This document shows positions 19,784 to 32,518 of a stretch of 64,000 nucleotides of DNA, piece after piece. The position numbers and the translations under genes were made by a program. Source of the stretch: Candidatus Eiseniibacteriota bacterium. Its GTDB lineage: Bacteria > Eisenbacteria > RBG-16-71-46 > CAVPCR01. Every line of letters starts with the position of its first letter. Position 1 is the first letter of the stretch. The stretch is taken from positions 576,001 through 640,000 of the forward strand of contig CAWGMA010000001.1 in NCBI GenBank assembly GCA_963823555.1, in the 5' to 3' direction. The notes under the pieces were generated by a model, which was given only the letters and a program-made list of their open reading frames with translations, was not told the origin of the DNA and did not search any database.

Positions 19784-19960
19784 GGCGTGCCCGGTCGCCC
19801 CCCGCGGCCGGTTGAGCACCGGGGCGGGTAGGGGGTAAACTCCGCCCGGTCTTGAGCCTTCCCCCCGCAGCGGCGCTGGTTGTCCCGCCGCCCCCATTCG
19901 CGTCCTCAGTTGACCGCGGCCGCGCCATCCTCGCCGGGCGGGCGGCGCCGAGGTGATCTC

Positions 19961-20752
19961 ATGTCCAGGTCCCGACGATCCAATCCGGGAAACCGCCTCA
20001 CAGGCAAGCGGCTGGTCGCCGTTTTCGCCCACCCCGATGACGAGACCTTCGGCCCCGGGGGCACCTTCGCGCGCTATGCGGCTGCCGGGGTCGAGATGCA
20101 TCTCGTCTGCGGCACGCGAGGGGAGGCTGGATCGATCGGACACTCGCGATCCTATGGTCCCGAGCTTCTCGGGCGGATCCGGCAAGCGGAGCTGGAGGCC
20201 GCAGCCGAGGTCCTCGGTTTCCGCGGGTTGACCTTTCTCGGTTACCAGGACGGGCGAGTGTCGGCGGTGGACAAGGAACGCGGCATGGCCGATGTCTACC
20301 GCGTGCTCCAGGCGGTCCAACCCCACGTTGTCGTGGCCTTCCACCCCACCGGGATCTCCGGGCATGTCGATCATCAGACCATGACCGCGTTCGCCACGGC
20401 GGCGGTGGAGCGACTGTGGACCGAGGGAACAGGGGATCCGGATGACCACCGCACGGACCTCCAGCTGCATTACTACACGATTCCGGCCTCCGTGGTGCGC
20501 CAGATCCAGTTCCGCGAGATGCCTCTCGTGCCGGATGAGGACATCACGATCGAGCTCGACACGGCGGCGTTCGCCGAGGTCAAGCGTCGCGCCATCTTCT
20601 GCCACAAGACTCAGCTCGCCTTTTACGAGCGTCTGAGGAGCGTGCCCGGCCCGGATGGGCGGTTCGCGATCGAACGCTACGTGACGCACCGGGCGGCGCC
20701 GCGCGCCCGGCGCGGGACCGATCTCTTCGCTGCCAACGGGCGTCCAGGTTAG
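19961..20752 (+). CDS. PIG-L family deacetylase (MshB/BshB-like)
   Basis: AHPDDE, 'TRGEAG', 'SGHVDH', 'HKTQ'. Confidence 0.9.
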   Translation: MSRSRRSNPGNRLTGKRLVAVFAHPDDETFGPGGTFARYAAAGVEMHLVCGTRGEAGSIGHSRSYGPELLGRIRQAELEAAAEVLGFRGLTFLGYQDGRVSAVDKERGMADVYRVLQAVQPHVVVAFHPTGISGHVDHQTMTAFATAAVERLWTEGTGDPDDHRTDLQLHYYTIPASVVRQIQFREMPLVPDEDITIELDTAAFAEVKRRAIFCHKTQLAFYERLRSVPGPDGRFAIERYVTHRAAPRARRGTDLFAANGRPG

Positions 20753-20797: not shown

Positions 20798-22733
20798 TCA
20801 GGCTTCCTCCTCCGGCTCGTGATCAGGCTCCTCCCACGCGCTTGCATCCGAGGCCGGGTGGAAGAAGTCATGGATCTCCCGGGCCGCGCCGCGTCCGATT
20901 CCGGGCACCTGGGCGAGCTCCTCGACCGATGCCTCCTTCACCGCAGCGAGCGAGCCGAGCGTGGTCAGGAGGGCGCTCCGCCGCCGGGGACCGATTCCGG
21001 GAATGGCCTCGAGCTTGGAGAGCGTCAGACTCCGCCGCTTGAGTTGCCGCTGATACGTGATGGCAAAGCGGTGCGCCTCGTCTCGGATGCGAACCAGAAA
21101 GTGATTCTCGGGTGAATCCTGGCGCAGAACGATCGGTTCATCACGGTCGGCCGTGTAGACGCGTTCCTCCGTTCGGATCGCGGCCGGAGCCCGGTCGCTC
21201 CCGCCGAGCGCCGGGCGCCGCTTTCGCCGGGACTTGGCTAGCCCGATGACATCGATATCGACCACGTTGTGCTCGGCCATCACTTCGCGCACCCGGTCGA
21301 GCTGGCCCTTGCCACCATCGATGATGAGGAGATCGGGTAATGATCCTTCTTTGATCCCCCGCTCGAGGCGACGGGAGAGCACCTCGGCGAGGGCGCCGAA
21401 GTCATCTCCCGGCTGCGCCGATCGCACGCGATAGCGCCGGTAGCGGTCCTTGTCGGCCACACCCCCGACAAAGGTCACGCGCGAACCCACTGTCTCCCGG
21501 CCCCCGAGGTGCGAGATGTCATAACATTCGATGACCTCGGGTGTGCTGTTCAGGGTGAGTTTCTCGCGTAGCGACTCGAGGAGCTCCGCGTGGCGATCGC
21601 GCTCGGCGCGGCTCGTGACCAGCGCCTGGGCCGCGTTCCGGTTCGCGATCTCGACCTGGGCTCGCTTGTCCCCTCGCTTGGGGACCCGGATGCGAACGGC
21701 ATGTCCCGACTTCTCCCCGAGCCACTCGCCGAGCACCGATTCATCCTCGATCTCGACCGGCACCAGGATCTCGGACGGGACCATCTTCTCGCCATCATAG
21801 AACTGCACGAGAAAGCTCGATAGGAGTTCGCCCACCGGCATCAGGGCGCGGAACCGGTGGGCCGTCGAGTGCGCCAGCTTGCCCTCGCGAAAGAAGAGCG
21901 TCTGGATCGCCAACTCACCGCCTTCCCAGTGGTAGCCGAAGACGTCACGGTCGTAGCTTTCTCCGGTCACCTCGGTGTGCTGCCGCTCGACGGTGAGTTC
22001 GATGGCGCCCATGCGATCGCGGAGCTCGGCCGCCTCCTCGAAGCGTCGCGCTGCTGCGGCCTCCTGCATCCGGCGCCGCAGCTCCTCGAGCACCGAGCGG
22101 TTGCGACCGCGCATGAACTGAATGAGCCCCTCGACATAGCTCCGGTAGATGTCTTCGCCCACGATGGTCGACGCAAGGAGCGGAACACATCCGGATGTCG
22201 TAGTAGACGCAAGGACGATTTCGATTGGCTAGAGTGTGATCTGTGCACAACCGGAGCGGGAAGACCCGCTGCAGGGCCCTGATCGTCGCACGCAGCTTGT
22301 CGGCCGAGGAGTAGGGTCCGAAGTAGAGGGCACCGTCGTCCTTCGCCCCCCGCGTCACCAGGGCCCGTGGCCAGCGGTGATCGACGTTGATCTTGAGGAT
22401 GACGTAGGATTTGTCGTCTCGCAGCCGCACGTTGAATCGCGGCTTCGCCTTCTTGATCAGGTTGTTCTCGAGGAGGAGCGCGTCCTTCTCGGTCGTGGTG
22501 ACCAGGTACTCGATATCGACCACGCGGTCGACGAGGAACTCGACCTGATAGCGCCCGTCGCCGGTGGTGCGGAAGTACGAGCGCACGCGGCTATGGAGGT
22601 CCTTGGCCTTGCCGATGTAGAGGACCTCGCCGGTGCTGTCGCGCATGAGGTAGACCCCGGGTGAGCGCGGGGCCTGGTCGAGACGCTCGGCCAGGCGGGG
22701 AGTGATCGGGATCGGGAGGTCGTGTTCCGTCAT
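20798..22733 (-). pseudogene. uvrC: Excinuclease ABC subunit C split by a frameshift near 22163-22166 (pseudogene or sequence error)
   Basis: 5' ORF has GIY-YIG (GVY..YIGKA) and a Cys cluster ending CSAPCVD; the sequence continues in another frame with UVR, RNase H-like (ECYDISH, IDGGKGQ, RDEAHRFA) and HhH domains. Confidence 0.9.
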
Positions 22734-22894: not shown

Positions 22895-23716
22895 ATGGAA
22901 GTGATGATCGGTTCCACGCGCCTCGACCTCGTCGAGGGCGATCTGACCGCGCTCCCTGCGGATGCCATCATCAACCCCGCGAATGCGGAGCTCCAGCTCG
23001 GCGCGGGGGTCGCCGGCGCGATCCGGCAGCGGGGCGGCCCGGCAATCCAAGCGGAGTGCGCCGCTCTGGCGCCGATCGCCGTGGGGCAGGCGGTCCTGAC
23101 CGGTGGGGGCGCGCTCCCCGCGCGGCACGTGATCCATGCGGTGGGGCCGCGCTGGGGGGAAGGCGACGAGGACGAGAAGCTCGCCCGGGCGACCCGGGCG
23201 AGTCTCACCCTGGCCGAGGAGCGCGGGCTCGGCTGGGTGGCGTTTCCAGCCCTCTCCACCGGTGTGTTCGGATTCCCCATCGACCGGTGTGCCGCGATCA
23301 TGCTGGGAACGGTGATTGCCTTCCTGCTTCCCGGGAGCCACCTCCGGCGCGTGACCTTCAGCCTGTGGGGAGCCGAGGCCTATCAGGTCTTTGCAGCCGA
23401 ACTGGCCCGGCACGACCTGGGCGGCGGAAATCGCCTCCCACCCGGGCCAGAAGCCGCGGAGGCCGGGAGCATCGTTGTCGAGCTGCTTCTCTTCGCCGTA
23501 CTGCGCGATGCCATCGGCACGGACCGCGTGCGCCTCACTCTCCCCGCGCCAGCCACGGCCGGTGATGCCCTGGCCGCCGTCGTGGCGCGTCATCCGGCAG
23601 TGGCGCAGCACCAGCCGAGCCTCCGGCTCGCGGTCAATTGCGAGTACGCGGACCCGGGCCGAGAGCTCGCAACCGGGGATGAAGTGGCGCTCATTCCCCC
23701 TACGTGTGGCGGATGA
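22895..23716 (+). CDS. Macrodomain fused to a C-terminal MoaD/ThiS sulfur-carrier domain
   Basis: Macro: 'GDLT..DAIINPAN..GAGVAGAI..VIHAVGP..FPALSTGVFGFP'; MoaD: 'LLFAVLRD..AVNCEY..GDEVALIPPTCGG*'. Confidence 0.88.
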   Translation: MEVMIGSTRLDLVEGDLTALPADAIINPANAELQLGAGVAGAIRQRGGPAIQAECAALAPIAVGQAVLTGGGALPARHVIHAVGPRWGEGDEDEKLARATRASLTLAEERGLGWVAFPALSTGVFGFPIDRCAAIMLGTVIAFLLPGSHLRRVTFSLWGAEAYQVFAAELARHDLGGGNRLPPGPEAAEAGSIVVELLLFAVLRDAIGTDRVRLTLPAPATAGDALAAVVARHPAVAQHQPSLRLAVNCEYADPGRELATGDEVALIPPTCGG

Positions 23717-24144
23717 CGCCGGTCTCGCCGCCGCGTGTCGCGCTGTCCGCGACGACGATCGACGCGGCCCAGGTGGCGGGCCTCGTCGCCGGTAGCGGCG
23801 CCGGGGGCCTGGTCCTCTTCATCGGGACCGTGCGTGACGAGAACCGCGGGCGGGCCGTCATCCGTCTCGTCTACGAGGCCTACGCGCCGATGGCGATCAA
23901 GGTCATCGAGAGGGTCGCAGCCGAAGCCCGCGACCGATTTGCCGTTCTCGATGTCGCCGTACACCATCGCACGGGTGAGCTGGCCCTGGGCGACGTGGCC
24001 GTGGTGGTCGCGGTGGCTGCGGTGCATCGTGCGGAGGCCTTCGTTGCCTGCAAGTATGTGATCGATGAGCTCAAGACGCGGGCGCCGATCTGGAAGAAGG
24101 AGATCTACCGGGACGGTGAATCGTGGTTGAGTCACGGTCCCTAG
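23713..24144 (+). CDS. moaE: Molybdopterin synthase catalytic subunit
   Basis: 'FIGTVRD', 'LVYEAYAPMA', 'HRTGEL', 'IDELKTRAPIWKKE'; ATGA overlap with the upstream gene. Confidence 0.93.
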   Translation: MTPVSPPRVALSATTIDAAQVAGLVAGSGAGGLVLFIGTVRDENRGRAVIRLVYEAYAPMAIKVIERVAAEARDRFAVLDVAVHHRTGELALGDVAVVVAVAAVHRAEAFVACKYVIDELKTRAPIWKKEIYRDGESWLSHGP

Positions 24145-24187: not shown

Positions 24188-25003
24188 ATGATGGCGGCAG
24201 ATCATGCTGCGCTCGAGGCTCGACGGCGCGTGGCTACGGCGGCCGCCCTCGAGGCCGGTCGCGCTTTGCGGCAGTACTTCGGCAAGCCTCTCGAATCGCG
24301 CCTCAAGCAGGGTGGGTCCATGGTCTCCGCGGCCGATCACGCCGCGGAGGACATCCTGCGCGAGTGGGTCGCCAGGGAGTTCCCCGGGGATTCGATCCTG
24401 GCCGAGGAAGGCGGGTTCGTGCCGGGAGACCAGACCTGGTGCTGGACGCTGGATGGTCTCGATGGAACGCAGAATTTCCTGGCGGGGATTCCGCTCTTCG
24501 CCGTTGCCTTGGCGGTGCTCATGGAGCGCTCGCCCGCCGTGGCCGTGATCCACGATCCGGTGCGGCAGGTCAGCTACACGGCGCACAGGGGGGGTGGGGC
24601 ATGGTGCGAGGATGATCCCATCAGGGTCAACCCCCGCCCCCTCGATCCATCATCGTTGATTGCCGTGAGGCATCGCTTCCTCCGGCGCGAGGCCGATCGA
24701 ATCTACGATGCCCTGCCGTCGAGGAAGTTCCGCAGTCTGGGTAGCATGTCGATCGAACTCGCCTACACCGCCAGCGGTGCGCTCGCCGGACTGGTGGCCA
24801 ACAGGCCGCACCTGTGGGACATCGCCCCCGGCGTGCTCCTCATCGAGGAAGGAGGAGGCTCGGCCCTGAGTTTCGACGGCAGCACCATCTTCCCTCTTGG
24901 CCACGAGCCTGGCAACGAGCCCGACCGCCGCTACAGGATTGCTGCCGGGAACCCGACGGTCGTCACCGAGCTGGTGGCGCACCTGCGCGACCTGCCCTTG
25001 TAG
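24188..25003 (+). CDS. Inositol monophosphatase (SuhB/CysQ-like) family protein
   Basis: 'LAEEG', 'WTLDGLDGTQNF', 'RSLGS', 'WDIAPG'. Confidence 0.85.
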   Translation: MMAADHAALEARRRVATAAALEAGRALRQYFGKPLESRLKQGGSMVSAADHAAEDILREWVAREFPGDSILAEEGGFVPGDQTWCWTLDGLDGTQNFLAGIPLFAVALAVLMERSPAVAVIHDPVRQVSYTAHRGGGAWCEDDPIRVNPRPLDPSSLIAVRHRFLRREADRIYDALPSRKFRSLGSMSIELAYTASGALAGLVANRPHLWDIAPGVLLIEEGGGSALSFDGSTIFPLGHEPGNEPDRRYRIAAGNPTVVTELVAHLRDLPL

Positions 25004-25519: not shown

Positions 25520-26629
25520 TCAGAATGTGGAGTCTAGAGCCCTTTCCTCGCCTGAAGATTCCGCGTCGCCACTTGGACTTCCCTGCGTGGCGGCGGAATC
25601 CGGGTCCTCTGGATCGCGGTCGCCTTCCGGCGCGGCATCCAGCCCTTCGGGGGCTGAAACCCCGGCTTCGTCCGCGGGGGGAGGCGATGGTTGTGGTTGC
25701 CCATCGATCTCGCCCACCGGGAGAGCCTCCAGAACCATCGTCTGGCCGCTCGTCACCATGCACCATTCGATCTCGGCCGGCTCTTCAAGGATCTCCTCCA
25801 CGCCGAGCGCCATGGTGCATAGATTGCGGATGGCCGGGTCCTTGAGCACGACCGAGTTCCGGCGGTTCTTGGGCACCGGCACGATGCCGCTTGCCGAGAC
25901 CATGATGTCCTTGGTGACGATCCGCTTGTAGCGCAAAGCCATCGTCCGCCGGTCGACATGGTAGATGTCCGGGGTCGCCTGCGCCGCCGAGCCTTGACCC
26001 ATGCCCCAGAAAGCAGTGATGACCAGCCGATCCCGGTCGCCCGTGCCGGGATCCGCGGTGAAGATGGTGCCCGAGGACACCGGGTGCACCATGACTTGAA
26101 TGAGCACCGCAGGGCGCAACCGGGCATGATCGACCCCGGCGCGCTGTGCCGCCGTGATCACCGACGGCTGCCAGATCGAAGCCCACACGTCGCGCACGGC
26201 CTGGAAGAGATCTTTCTCTCCAAGCACATTGAGATGCGGCTCGGCATGTCCGGAGACTGGACTCCGCATGAGATCGTCGCAGGCCAAGGAAAGGCGTACG
26301 ACCACGCGGGGACGCTGGCCCAGCGTGCGGTAGACGGTCGACAGGCTGAACGCTACCTCGGCGGGAATCGCCGCTTCGAGGATGCGGGCATGGATGGTCT
26401 CGGCGGTGGAGAGGACATCGGGACCTTCAGGCAGGGCATGGAAGGCCGTGACGGCGTCCCCGATTCCGGAGTCCTTGAGGAAGGCGTCGTAGGCAAGAGC
26501 CTTGAGGCAGAAGCCCTTCGGTACTGGAACGCCACGGGCGAGAACCTCACCGAGAAGCGCCCCCTTGCCGCCGGCCTGGCTCACCTTGGCACGGTTAATG
26601 TCTTCCAGGCCAACAACATATTCATCCAT
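25520..26629 (-). CDS. Stand-alone PEP synthase/PPDK N-terminal ATP-grasp-like domain with degenerate motifs and an acidic tail
   Basis: 'GGKGALLG..GVPVPKGF', 'VLIQVMV..SGTIFT.DP.TG', 'EIEW'; no His-swivel or PEP-binding domain. Confidence 0.75.
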   Translation of the reverse strand: MDEYVVGLEDINRAKVSQAGGKGALLGEVLARGVPVPKGFCLKALAYDAFLKDSGIGDAVTAFHALPEGPDVLSTAETIHARILEAAIPAEVAFSLSTVYRTLGQRPRVVVRLSLACDDLMRSPVSGHAEPHLNVLGEKDLFQAVRDVWASIWQPSVITAAQRAGVDHARLRPAVLIQVMVHPVSSGTIFTADPGTGDRDRLVITAFWGMGQGSAAQATPDIYHVDRRTMALRYKRIVTKDIMVSASGIVPVPKNRRNSVVLKDPAIRNLCTMALGVEEILEEPAEIEWCMVTSGQTMVLEALPVGEIDGQPQPSPPPADEAGVSAPEGLDAAPEGDRDPEDPDSAATQGSPSGDAESSGEERALDSTF

Positions 26630-26671
26630 GCAGTCTCGCCCTCCACCAACCCGAGATCGAAGAAGGCTACC

Positions 26672-26700
26672 ATTAAACGAGCACAGCCGGGACCTGTAAA
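26672..26700 (-). promoter_or_regulatory. Candidate sigma70 promoter
   Basis: Minus strand TTTACA-17nt-TTTAAT. Confidence 0.45.
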
Positions 26701-27102
26701 GGGGAAAACCGGCCTGAGCGCACCGAATCGCCGGTGCATCCACCAATCTGGTATGGGCTTGGGAATGCCGCCGAACCCTGCAGAGGAGCTGGCCGGAACG
26801 TCGGCGGGAGCCTGGCGGCCGGGCGGGAACCCTCGTTCTCGTAGGGTCTCCTTTTCGGACTACCGGGCCTTGTGATAGCGTTCTCCGATGGCAGGTGGCG
26901 GGGCAGGCGCGTCCGACGTCCCTGGCCCTCGGCTTTCCGGACCGATTACCTATCTATAATAACTCCAGTGACTTAAGCCCGAGTGGCAGTTGCCGCGGGC
27001 GGTCCTGGGATACCCTCAGCTCGCGACGGCTCGTCACGGTCATGAGTCCGGCGCGGTCGCCGGCTCCCGGCGGGGCCGGGAGGATGACGGGGAGGTTGCA
27101 TC

Positions 27103-31141: not shown

Positions 31142-31170
31142 TTGACACTCGCCCCGCGCCTGCCTAGTCT
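31142..31170 (+). promoter_or_regulatory. sigma70-type promoter for the GWxTD operon
   Basis: TTGACA-17nt-TAGTCT; the ORF-track TTG start is this -35 box. Confidence 0.65.
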
Positions 31171-31210
31171 GCCCGCAGCCGATCCCGGGCCCGTCTTCCG
31201 GATTGCACCC

Positions 31211-32518
31211 ATGAGGCCGAACTTCCTCCTACTAGCTCTCATGTTCGCCGTGGTCGCCGCTTGCACCGGCGGGTGCGGCTCGAGTGGGCCGCCTGCTCCC
31301 CCGCCCGGTCTGACCGACATGCCGACCCGGTCCGACGCGCCGCCGGCCTTCTACGTCGATACCACCTCCCTGGTCGCCGACGAATCCTCGACCGGGGTTC
31401 GCGTCACCGTCTCCGCGCCCCTCAATCAGCTGCCGTTCACCAAGCGTCAGGGTGGGGGCTACGAGGCCGAGTTCGAGATGTCGGCCATCTTCTATGACAA
31501 GAACGCGGAGCAGGTGACGGGCGACGTCTGGCGCTACAAGACGACCGCCGAGCACTATCGTGAGACCACATCCAGCCGCAAGAGCTACACCGCCACTGCT
31601 GACTTCGCTCTGGAACCGGGTGAGTACACGCTGGTCGTTCATGTCTCGGCGGTCGGCGGCTCCGGCGGCTCGTCGGCGACACGCGTCGTCTACGTGAGCC
31701 CCCTCTCCAGCCAGGGCGTGCAGGTCTCGGCCATCGAGATCGGGTCATGCGCGGATTCCCTCTCCGGGGTGGCCGGTCCGGATGCCACCGCCTTCACGGC
31801 CAGTCTGACCCGTCGCTTCGGCGACCCGCTCCCTCACGTTTGCGCCCGCGGCGAGGTCTTCGCGCGGGGCGCAGGGGCCGGGGAGGCGGTGATCCTCACC
31901 ATGGAGACCATCGACCGCAGCGGGCAGGGCCATTCGACCACCGTTGACACGCTGATCGTGGTGGGCACCCGAACGGCGTTCTTGATCCCGATGCCGGTGG
32001 AGAGTCTCGGCCCCGGCACCTATGTGCTCGAGCTGACGGCGGCATACCGCGGCGAGAACGCAACCTCATCGCGGGAGTTCGAGATCGACGCGAGTCGGAT
32101 CGACATCGAGCGCAATTACGATGATTATGTCGAGCTGGTGCGCTACTACCTCGGCGAGGAGGCCGAGGAACTGCGCGGCGCGCCGCCGGGAGAGCGGCGT
32201 GCCCGCTGGGATGCCTTCTGGAAGGAGAGGGATCCCGATCCCGGCACTCCGGAGAACGAGCGCCTCGACGAGTTCATTTCCCGGATCCGAGTTGCGGCTG
32301 ATCGTTTCCCGGAACGCGGCAAGCCGGGTTGGGATACCGACCGTGGCAAGGTCTACATCCGGTATGGCGATCCCGAGGACATCGAGCAGGTGCCTGCCGG
32401 CTTCAACGCACCGGCCTATGAGATCTGGCGCTACACGAGCCGCAATCTGACCTTTGTCTTCGCCGACACCGGCGGGTTCGGCGAATACATCCTGGTCCAG
32501 CCATCCAGTCCATTCTAG
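31211..32518 (+). CDS. GWxTD domain-containing lipoprotein
   Basis: Signal peptide/lipobox 'VVAAC'; 'FWKERDPDPGTPENE', 'GWDTDRGKVYIRYG'. Confidence 0.88.
   Translation: MRPNFLLLALMFAVVAACTGGCGSSGPPAPPPGLTDMPTRSDAPPAFYVDTTSLVADESSTGVRVTVSAPLNQLPFTKRQGGGYEAEFEMSAIFYDKNAEQVTGDVWRYKTTAEHYRETTSSRKSYTATADFALEPGEYTLVVHVSAVGGSGGSSATRVVYVSPLSSQGVQVSAIEIGSCADSLSGVAGPDATAFTASLTRRFGDPLPHVCARGEVFARGAGAGEAVILTMETIDRSGQGHSTTVDTLIVVGTRTAFLIPMPVESLGPGTYVLELTAAYRGENATSSREFEIDASRIDIERNYDDYVELVRYYLGEEAEELRGAPPGERRARWDAFWKERDPDPGTPENERLDEFISRIRVAADRFPERGKPGWDTDRGKVYIRYGDPEDIEQVPAGFNAPAYEIWRYTSRNLTFVFADTGGFGEYILVQPSSPF

Follow-up and report, generated by a model that had tools for sequence, protein, structure and literature searches.

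Does an open reading frame that joins a macrodomain to a MoaD-type sulfur carrier directly ahead of moaE represent a natural protein and, if so, what does an ADP-ribose module do on a subunit of molybdopterin (MPT) synthase? The frame lies in a 64 000 nucleotide stretch of a Candidatus Eiseniibacteriota genome (hereafter the window), and the genome carrying it (G000, 92.5% complete) comprises four contigs totalling 4.6 Mb, which suggests a long-read assembly.

The fused gene and the molybdenum-cofactor pathway

A single open frame of 273 codons (22895–23716, forward strand) encodes a protein of 273 amino acids that ends in PPTCGG immediately before the stop codon. Pfam places a Macro domain (PF01661) at residues 26–136 (124.8 bits, cut-off 22) and a ThiS domain (PF02597) at residues 198–273 (44.5 bits, cut-off 22.5), and the macrodomain motifs NPAN, GAGV and STGVFG are all present in the protein. 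No in-frame ATG, GTG or TTG occurs between codons 23351 and 23528, and the linker has no stop codon in any frame. Frame, Pfam matches and codon scan therefore confirm the preliminary description of the locus, i.e. one uninterrupted frame comprising a macrodomain, a linker free of ATG and a beta-grasp domain ending in PPTCGG, with an ATGA overlap with moaE. The AlphaFold model, built on an alignment of eight sequences, displays two confident domains (mean pLDDT 85, pTM 0.62) and predicts disorder in the linker (pLDDT < 50 at residues 176–187). A promoter and terminator scan found nothing. The features are collected in Table 1.

Table 1. Features of the macrodomain–moaD–moaE locus, with positions in the window.
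Feature	Position	Strand	Remarks
Macrodomain	22895..23419	+	Residues 1–175; Af1521/TTHA0132-like; D16, N27, N30, G36-A37-G38-V39-A40, H81, STGVFGF 121–127
Linker	23420..23470	+	About residues 176–192 (17 residues); Gly/Pro/Ala-rich; predicted disordered; without start or stop codon
MoaD-type beta-grasp domain	23471..23716	+	Residues 193–273; C-terminal Cys-Gly-Gly free
moaE, molybdopterin synthase large subunit	23713..24144	+	PF02391, 128.4 bits; ATGA overlap with the fusion stop; single copy in the genome
Inositol-monophosphatase-family gene	24188..25003	+	3′ of moaE in G000, G001, G004 and L088–L090; in G003 660 nt further
uvrC	20798..22733	−	Divergent from the fusion gene or locus in 5/5 genomes of the order; two frames here, break near 22160–22200

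The uvrC break lies just past the CSAPCV motif; since uvrC is continuous at that point in both the same-genus genome G001 and the same-family genome G002, it is probably an assembly indel. On the other side of uvrC, the frame at 19880–20752 (reverse strand), which adjoins uvrC in G001 also, matched no family in the Pfam scan; its AHPDDE and GHVDH motifs look PIG-L/BshB-like to us. The inositol-monophosphatase-family (IMPase) gene, which stands beside moaE in most of the order, has as its best NCBIfam match a bifunctional FBPase/IMPase model (120 bits, cut-off 264). Further along, the window encodes a PPDK_N (PEP/pyruvate-binding) domain on its own, in a protein that has an acidic tail (25520–26746, reverse strand) and, after ruvC/ruvA-like genes, a lipoprotein-like frame (31142–32518, reverse strand) with a GWDTDRG motif that we take to be of the GWxTD type.

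The free terminal Gly-Gly of MoaD is adenylated and thiocarboxylated, in many bacteria by a rhodanese-fused E1 enzyme, as reported in PMC4326299 and PMC3227635. The MoaD profile matched the MPT-synthase small subunits of human (5MPO_A) and Escherichia coli (1FM0_D) first and SAMP1 structures after them, and the terminal Gly-Gly is invariant in all 12 aligned sequences. Three ThiS-family genes are present in G000, and the fusion is the only one linked to moaE: the second (66 amino acids) lies next to genes that, from their translations, we take to be thiG- and thiE-like, and the third (87 amino acids with a free Gly-Gly; L097, G000:C2:302077-303577) lies directly behind an unrelated gene of 407 amino acids. 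The product of moaE keeps the invariant MoaE core, and the genome elsewhere encodes one MoaC, one MoeA, four loci with PF00384, three with PF02738 and one ThiF+Rhodanese protein scoring above the NF006444 and NF004281 (MoeB) cut-offs. This sole E1-rhodanese (L098, G000:C1:2137881-2139059), encoded tail to tail with a gene that looks thiC-like from its translation, would need to be shared by the three ThiS-family proteins. Because its Gly-Gly end is free, it is the sole moaE-linked MoaD and the pathway genes are present, the fusion is very likely the source of the MPT-synthase small subunit in this organism.

The protein fits every MoaD feature tested save the TIGR01682 cut-off (57.4 bits against 66.15; 67.0 for the orthologue in G004, a genome of another family of the order). 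With E. coli 1FM0 and human MOCS2A/B (5MPO) it shares the beta-grasp carrier, the free Gly-Gly, the coupling to moaE and a genome that holds an E1-rhodanese and the pathway; it differs in the 190 residues of macrodomain and linker in front and in its tail, which reads PPTCGG where the solved MPT-synthase structures in the alignment have PPVTGG, PPISGG or PPVSGG. Of the 37 moaE loci detected across 61 genomes of the class, 30 were compared: all four with a macrodomain neighbour end in CGG, against none of the other 26 (23 SGG, one GGG, one QGG and one without Gly-Gly).

Ten of these 30 loci (set L122–L151) encode linear MoaD–MoaE fusions with an internal Gly-Gly, which would need a protease. 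MoaX and such linear fusions, as described in PMC4326299, likewise hold MoaD within a longer chain; their Gly-Gly lies inside the chain and has to be released by cleavage, whereas that of the macrodomain–MoaD protein is terminal. The latter is not a MoaX-type fusion, as the stop codon follows the Gly-Gly and moaE lies in another frame.

Distribution and history of the fusion

The search across genomes for the Macro+ThiS architecture, suggested in the preliminary description, found the fusion in further protein clusters: among the best 120 of 1906 matches, seven other clusters at 90% identity combine PF01661 with PF02597 (56–64% identity in this listing and 52–64% over all the searches, covering 97–100% of the query). 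When the search was directed at the junction and, separately, at the MoaD clade, these seven clusters came up again, joined by P0146. Fused clusters total nine, one of them with a decayed macrodomain, and the idea that relatives always keep the genes separate thus fails. Full-length fused members number three in the P0005 cluster and two in the P0009 cluster, some of them from other assemblies. With seven other clusters carrying both domains, two of which have these extra members, the fusion is a natural architecture and more than a chance or private error.

The macrodomain clade comprises 20 clusters, eight fused and 12 unfused (among the same best 120 of 1906 matches), some of the unfused ones lying on short contigs with their neighbours out of sight. 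The same locus occurs in five genomes of the order, with uvrC divergent, then moaD, moaE and usually the IMPase gene; the state of the fusion varies among them. In G001 the macrodomain and moaD are separate genes with an ATGA overlap, as in the metagenome locus L089, and in G002 they are separate and about 80 nt apart. In G003 (same order, 99% complete) moaD directly follows uvrC and is followed by moaE, the macrodomain being absent from the locus. G004 has a macrodomain–MoaD fusion with a decayed macrodomain (P0175, labelled 'MoaD/ThiS family protein' in the database), in a four-member cluster shared with P0146.

Beyond the order, the two domains are adjacent in none of the 21 class genomes that hold both, and none of 46 more distant macrodomain loci shows either moaD or moaE in flanks of up to 6 kb. 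A search of genome contigs for related loci found no fusion among the 53 loci listed, a set dominated by generic macrodomains. The pattern IPP[TVIAM]CGG-stop occurs in four of 206 class genomes, all within the order, and a DNA pattern of the tail hit three metagenome loci, one split and two ended by contig edges. Of the best 150 of 38 132 matches from a profile scan covering 1.84 billion representatives, one, P0005, is full-length, and the other 149 (mostly multi-macro proteins of eukaryote type) include none with a MoaD domain; the ESM Atlas search returned solely stand-alone macrodomain clusters, at 0.78. Within the reach of these searches the fusion is confined to one order and optional there. 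JGI automatic annotation gives some members both functions; the architecture is visible in databases, yet as far as our searches go it has not been studied within the literature covered.

Linkers vary from about five (P0002 and P0004) to 30 residues among the fusions and have no common sequence. In the macrodomain tree the seven other intact fusions group together with support (97/96), leaving the window's protein outside, and in the tree of both domains the latter groups with the split forms of G001, G002 and L089 (99/97), the other fusions falling into two groups outside. A single clade of fusions was not rejected by the AU test, either on the macrodomain alone (p 0.33) or on both domains (p 0.145; 11 rows, with G004 and nine macrodomain-only proteins left out). 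Since fused forms stand on several separate branches, the fusion is old or recurrent: either an old fusion was split more than once or the neighbours fused three or four times. Linker lengths and sequences are compatible with both histories, and under either the fusion state changed several times within one order. Three macrodomain-only members of the P0010 cluster, each of 206 amino acids, have a Gly/Pro tail that resembles the linker of the window's protein and terminate in GGGG; they may represent an intermediate, arising by read-through, between the split and the fused state.

The macrodomain half

The only PF01661 match in G000 is the macrodomain of the fusion. Residues D16, N27, N30, G36, G38, V39, H81 and the STG motif are invariant in all eight intact fusions, G126 of the phosphate loop being replaced by Arg in two of the eight. 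By Foldseek the domain matches OiMacroD (E 3e-18, rmsd 1.5 Å) and lies about 1.5 Å from solved macrodomains. The MacroD signature is Nx(6)GG[VLI]D, which includes the catalytic Asp, according to PMC8120803; here the sequence reads N30-x6-AGVA, with Asp at that position in none of the 20 clade members, and the second signature, G[VIA][YF]G, is present as G123-V-F-G126. All PRK00431 equivalog models score below cut-off. Canonical MacroD/YmdB identity is ruled out by the Ala at the catalytic Asp position and by these equivalog scores. Thus, the macrodomain that had been called intact is so in its fold and most of its binding motifs, whereas the GG[VLI]D part of the MacroD signature is not kept.

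The domain does agree with the Asp-less type represented by Af1521 and TTHA0132, as A40, N27, N30 and the glycine loops are kept in the alignment to 2DX6. TTHA0132, the best bacterial PDB match (E 1.7e-31), has the same GAGVAGAI loop, and both it and Af1521 have Ala at the catalytic Asp position; both are stand-alone proteins, whereas the macrodomain clade described here is marked by an AFLxPGSHL loop and adjoins moaD. Af1521 is reported to be active despite Ala for Asp, and the D40A and G37V variants of OiMacroD to lose 75–86% of their efficiency rather than all of it (PMC5413906). Given the motifs kept, the activity of Af1521 with the same Ala and the partial activity of the OiMacroD variants, the fusion's macrodomain is likely to bind ADP-ribose and to have modest hydrolase activity. 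The single sirtuin of G000, a CobB-type NAD-dependent deacylase encoded on another contig, is a plausible source of O-acetyl-ADP-ribose, and the genome also holds a DraG-like gene.

The loop after helix 5 (AFLxPGSHL) is specific to this clade and nearly invariant in its 20 members: A142, F143, P146, G147, S148 and H149 are 90–100% conserved there and found in only 0–6% of 99 outgroup macrodomains, except G147 (29%).

The G004 fusion (L031:2902-3615; four database members) ends in PPVCGG, and Pfam detects ThiS only. Its NAAN, HAVGP and STGVFG motifs are lost, so that every ADP-ribose-binding motif is gone, and the N-terminal half of the macrodomain is poorly predicted even from an alignment that includes intact macrodomains. 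The C-terminal half still matches the clade (hhalign 96.9%; Foldseek E about 1e-3 over 83–88 columns); in the clade-specific helix–loop 14 of 29 residues (129–157) are kept, against one of 13 in the phosphate loop, and four of the six loop residues listed above remain. Two intact macrodomains are encoded elsewhere in the G004 genome. The split forms, the loss in G003 and this fused domain without ligand motifs together indicate that ADP-ribose binding is not required for this MoaD.

What the macrodomain may do for MoaD

The explanation we favour, and consider probable, is that of a natural fusion within a conserved macrodomain–moaD–moaE operon, acting as an ordinary MPT-synthase small subunit to which the macrodomain is attached as a separate housekeeping passenger. 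By analogy with the MoaD/MoeB/MoaE pathway, the sole E1-rhodanese would adenylate Gly273 and convert it to a thiocarboxylate, and two fusion chains would dock on a MoaE dimer and pass the sulfur to cPMP; cleavage would be unnecessary because the Gly-Gly already ends the chain. The macrodomain would bind ADP-ribose and probably hydrolyse O-acetyl-ADP-ribose, such as the CobB-type sirtuin would yield, or ADP-ribose in acyl linkage, at a slow rate and without involving MoaD. With the extra domain at the N-terminus and a flexible linker in between, the working end of MoaD would stay unobstructed, which would explain why the fusion persists. This accords with a macrodomain that is a separate neighbour of moaD in G001, G002 and L089, absent in G003 and decayed yet still fused in G004, with the lack of linkage in the 21 class genomes outside the order and at the 46 distant loci, with variable, unshared linkers and a two-domain model with a disordered linker, and with the type of sirtuin and the pathway genes present. 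It sits less easily with a macrodomain–moaD linkage kept in all five loci with visible neighbours, fused or not, with fused forms on separate branches, with a CGG tail found, among the 30 moaE loci compared, only beside a macrodomain, and with a dead domain in G004 that stays fused and keeps its helix–loop.

Carriers fused to the C-terminus of another protein with their end free are known, namely AOR–MoaD of Azoarcus and sulfite reductase–ThiS of actinobacteria (PMC1779556). There the connection to the carrier is plain, the partner being a molybdenum/tungsten or sulfur enzyme, whereas the partner of the present MoaD is an ADP-ribose module. A term search found macrodomains unmentioned in the main texts of surveys of ubiquitin-like and archaeal fusions (PMC1779556, PMC2948915 and PMC11237513), 'macro' and 'ADP' both being absent from that of PMC1779556. 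The literature searched, which took in neither subscription journals nor the supplements to PMC1779556 (either could list the architecture), holds no description of a macrodomain–MoaD fusion, and the preliminary description knew of no characterisation; the architecture is apparently undescribed. While the fusion itself is real, the two roles offered for it in the preliminary description fared less well: an obligatory gate is unlikely and conjugation found no positive evidence beyond the Gly-Gly and the E1, as set out below.

It is possible, though in our judgement unlikely, that the macrodomain is dedicated to MoaD and MoaE, gating sulfur transfer through ADP-ribose/NAD turnover, unblocking the tail by removing ADP-ribose from its unusual Cys or from the carboxylate of the Gly, or serving as a structural adaptor through the clade-specific loop after helix 5. 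Such coupling would account for a macrodomain–moaD linkage kept across fused and split forms, for the CGG tail that tracks the macrodomain neighbour (4/4 against 0/26 moaE loci), for the loop conserved in 20 clade members and partly surviving in G004 (4/6 residues), and for binding residues invariant in the eight intact fusions. However, the linked forms are all members of a single order, and the CGG and loop evidence therefore amounts to about one independent contrast (for the tail, G003), and the conserved loop may reflect only shared ancestry or folding. Moreover, G003 has no macrodomain at the locus, that of G004 is predicted to be unable to bind ADP-ribose, and G126 is an Arg in two of the eight fusions. 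An obligatory ADP-ribose/NAD gate on sulfur transfer, in particular, is unlikely in view of the 12 unfused clusters, the split genes of the nearest genomes, the motif-less G004 fusion and the macrodomain-free G003 locus. A conceptual precedent for coupling is the macrodomain–SirTM–GcvH-L system as presented in PMC4518038, where a Zn-macrodomain is likewise encoded with a small cofactor-carrier protein; here, no sirtuin, transferase or lipoate ligase gene was seen in the operon. The fusion does not belong to that system: the single sirtuin is of the deacylase type and lies on another contig, and the protein-ADP-ribose hydrolase model NF003163 scores 84 for the fusion's macrodomain (cut-off 272).

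A more specific and still more doubtful proposal is an ADP-ribose checkpoint on the ubiquitin-like sulfur carrier, whereby the macrodomain would dock on MPT synthase via its loop and read or remove ADP-ribose at the Cys-Gly-Gly end, tying cofactor synthesis to NAD and DNA-damage status, the latter element being based on the divergent orientation of the operon and uvrC.

We regard as very unlikely the use of the fusion as a ubiquitin-like modifier, in which the E1 would activate the Gly-Gly and the whole macrodomain–MoaD chain would be joined to target lysines, delivering an ADP-ribose reader or eraser in the manner of SAMP1 or TtuB. The free Gly-Gly, the E1 in the genome and the SAMP1 structures matched by the MoaD profile are in keeping with such a use, as is the dual sulfur-carrier and modifier role of SAMPs discussed in PMC2948915. 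Against this, JAB/Prok-JAB proteases (PF01398, PF14464) gave no matches in G000 at its 92.5% completeness, the SAMP1 and SAMP E1 models score below cut-off (31.7 bits against 60 and 348.5 against 450, respectively), among solved structures the sequence matches MPT-synthase small subunits best, the gene is coupled to moaE, and split relatives could not deliver a macrodomain by conjugation.

Hardly any probability attaches to an assembly error at the join in G000, whereby the organism would have two genes like its nearest relatives and the architecture would be real elsewhere regardless. The nearest genomes do carry split genes, the window's protein groups with split forms and is the only member of its cluster (P0001), and comparison of G000 with 21 stretches of G001 gave at most 11 frameshift candidates in 220 conserved genes (82 658 aligned residues), at least two of the 11 rows being one break in the neighbouring uvrC counted from both strands. 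The resulting rate, about one per 25 kb, predicts an error in only some 0.3% of cases for the 69 nt linker stretch. Furthermore, although 348 of 552 single-base edits of the linker unfuse the gene, none yields both an early macrodomain stop and a MoaD start within the linker; an early stop with the MoaD frame open results from five insertions, which depend on a TTG within the last helix of the macrodomain, and none of them extends a base run. The linker is also seven codons longer than the macrodomain/moaD junction of G001, and dissimilar to it. A chance-fusion control in G000 returned six of 101 neighbour pairs, mostly shadow frames (one pair inspected), and was set aside.

Equally improbable is the separate production of macrodomain and MoaD from this one gene, either by cleavage of a precursor within the linker or by re-initiation at a non-canonical codon. 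Although the linker is exposed and disordered in the model and split relatives show that the halves work apart, the junction has no Gly-Gly or other conserved site, is down to about five residues in P0002 and P0004 and, unlike in MoaX (PMC4326299), need not be cut to free the Gly-Gly.

In the most likely reading, that of an ordinary MoaD with a passenger, the locus contributes a single, so far undescribed, domain architecture and shows that MoaD can accommodate a sizeable partner at its N-terminus. Were the macrodomain coupled to MoaD and MoaE, this would be the first link, within the literature searched, of ADP-ribose metabolism to a bacterial ubiquitin-like sulfur carrier. Crosstalk between ADP-ribose and ubiquitin is known in animal cells, and the checkpoint, if true, would be its bacterial parallel. 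Within the order, the fused, split, decayed and lost states form a small natural series in which to study how neighbouring genes of an operon join and separate.
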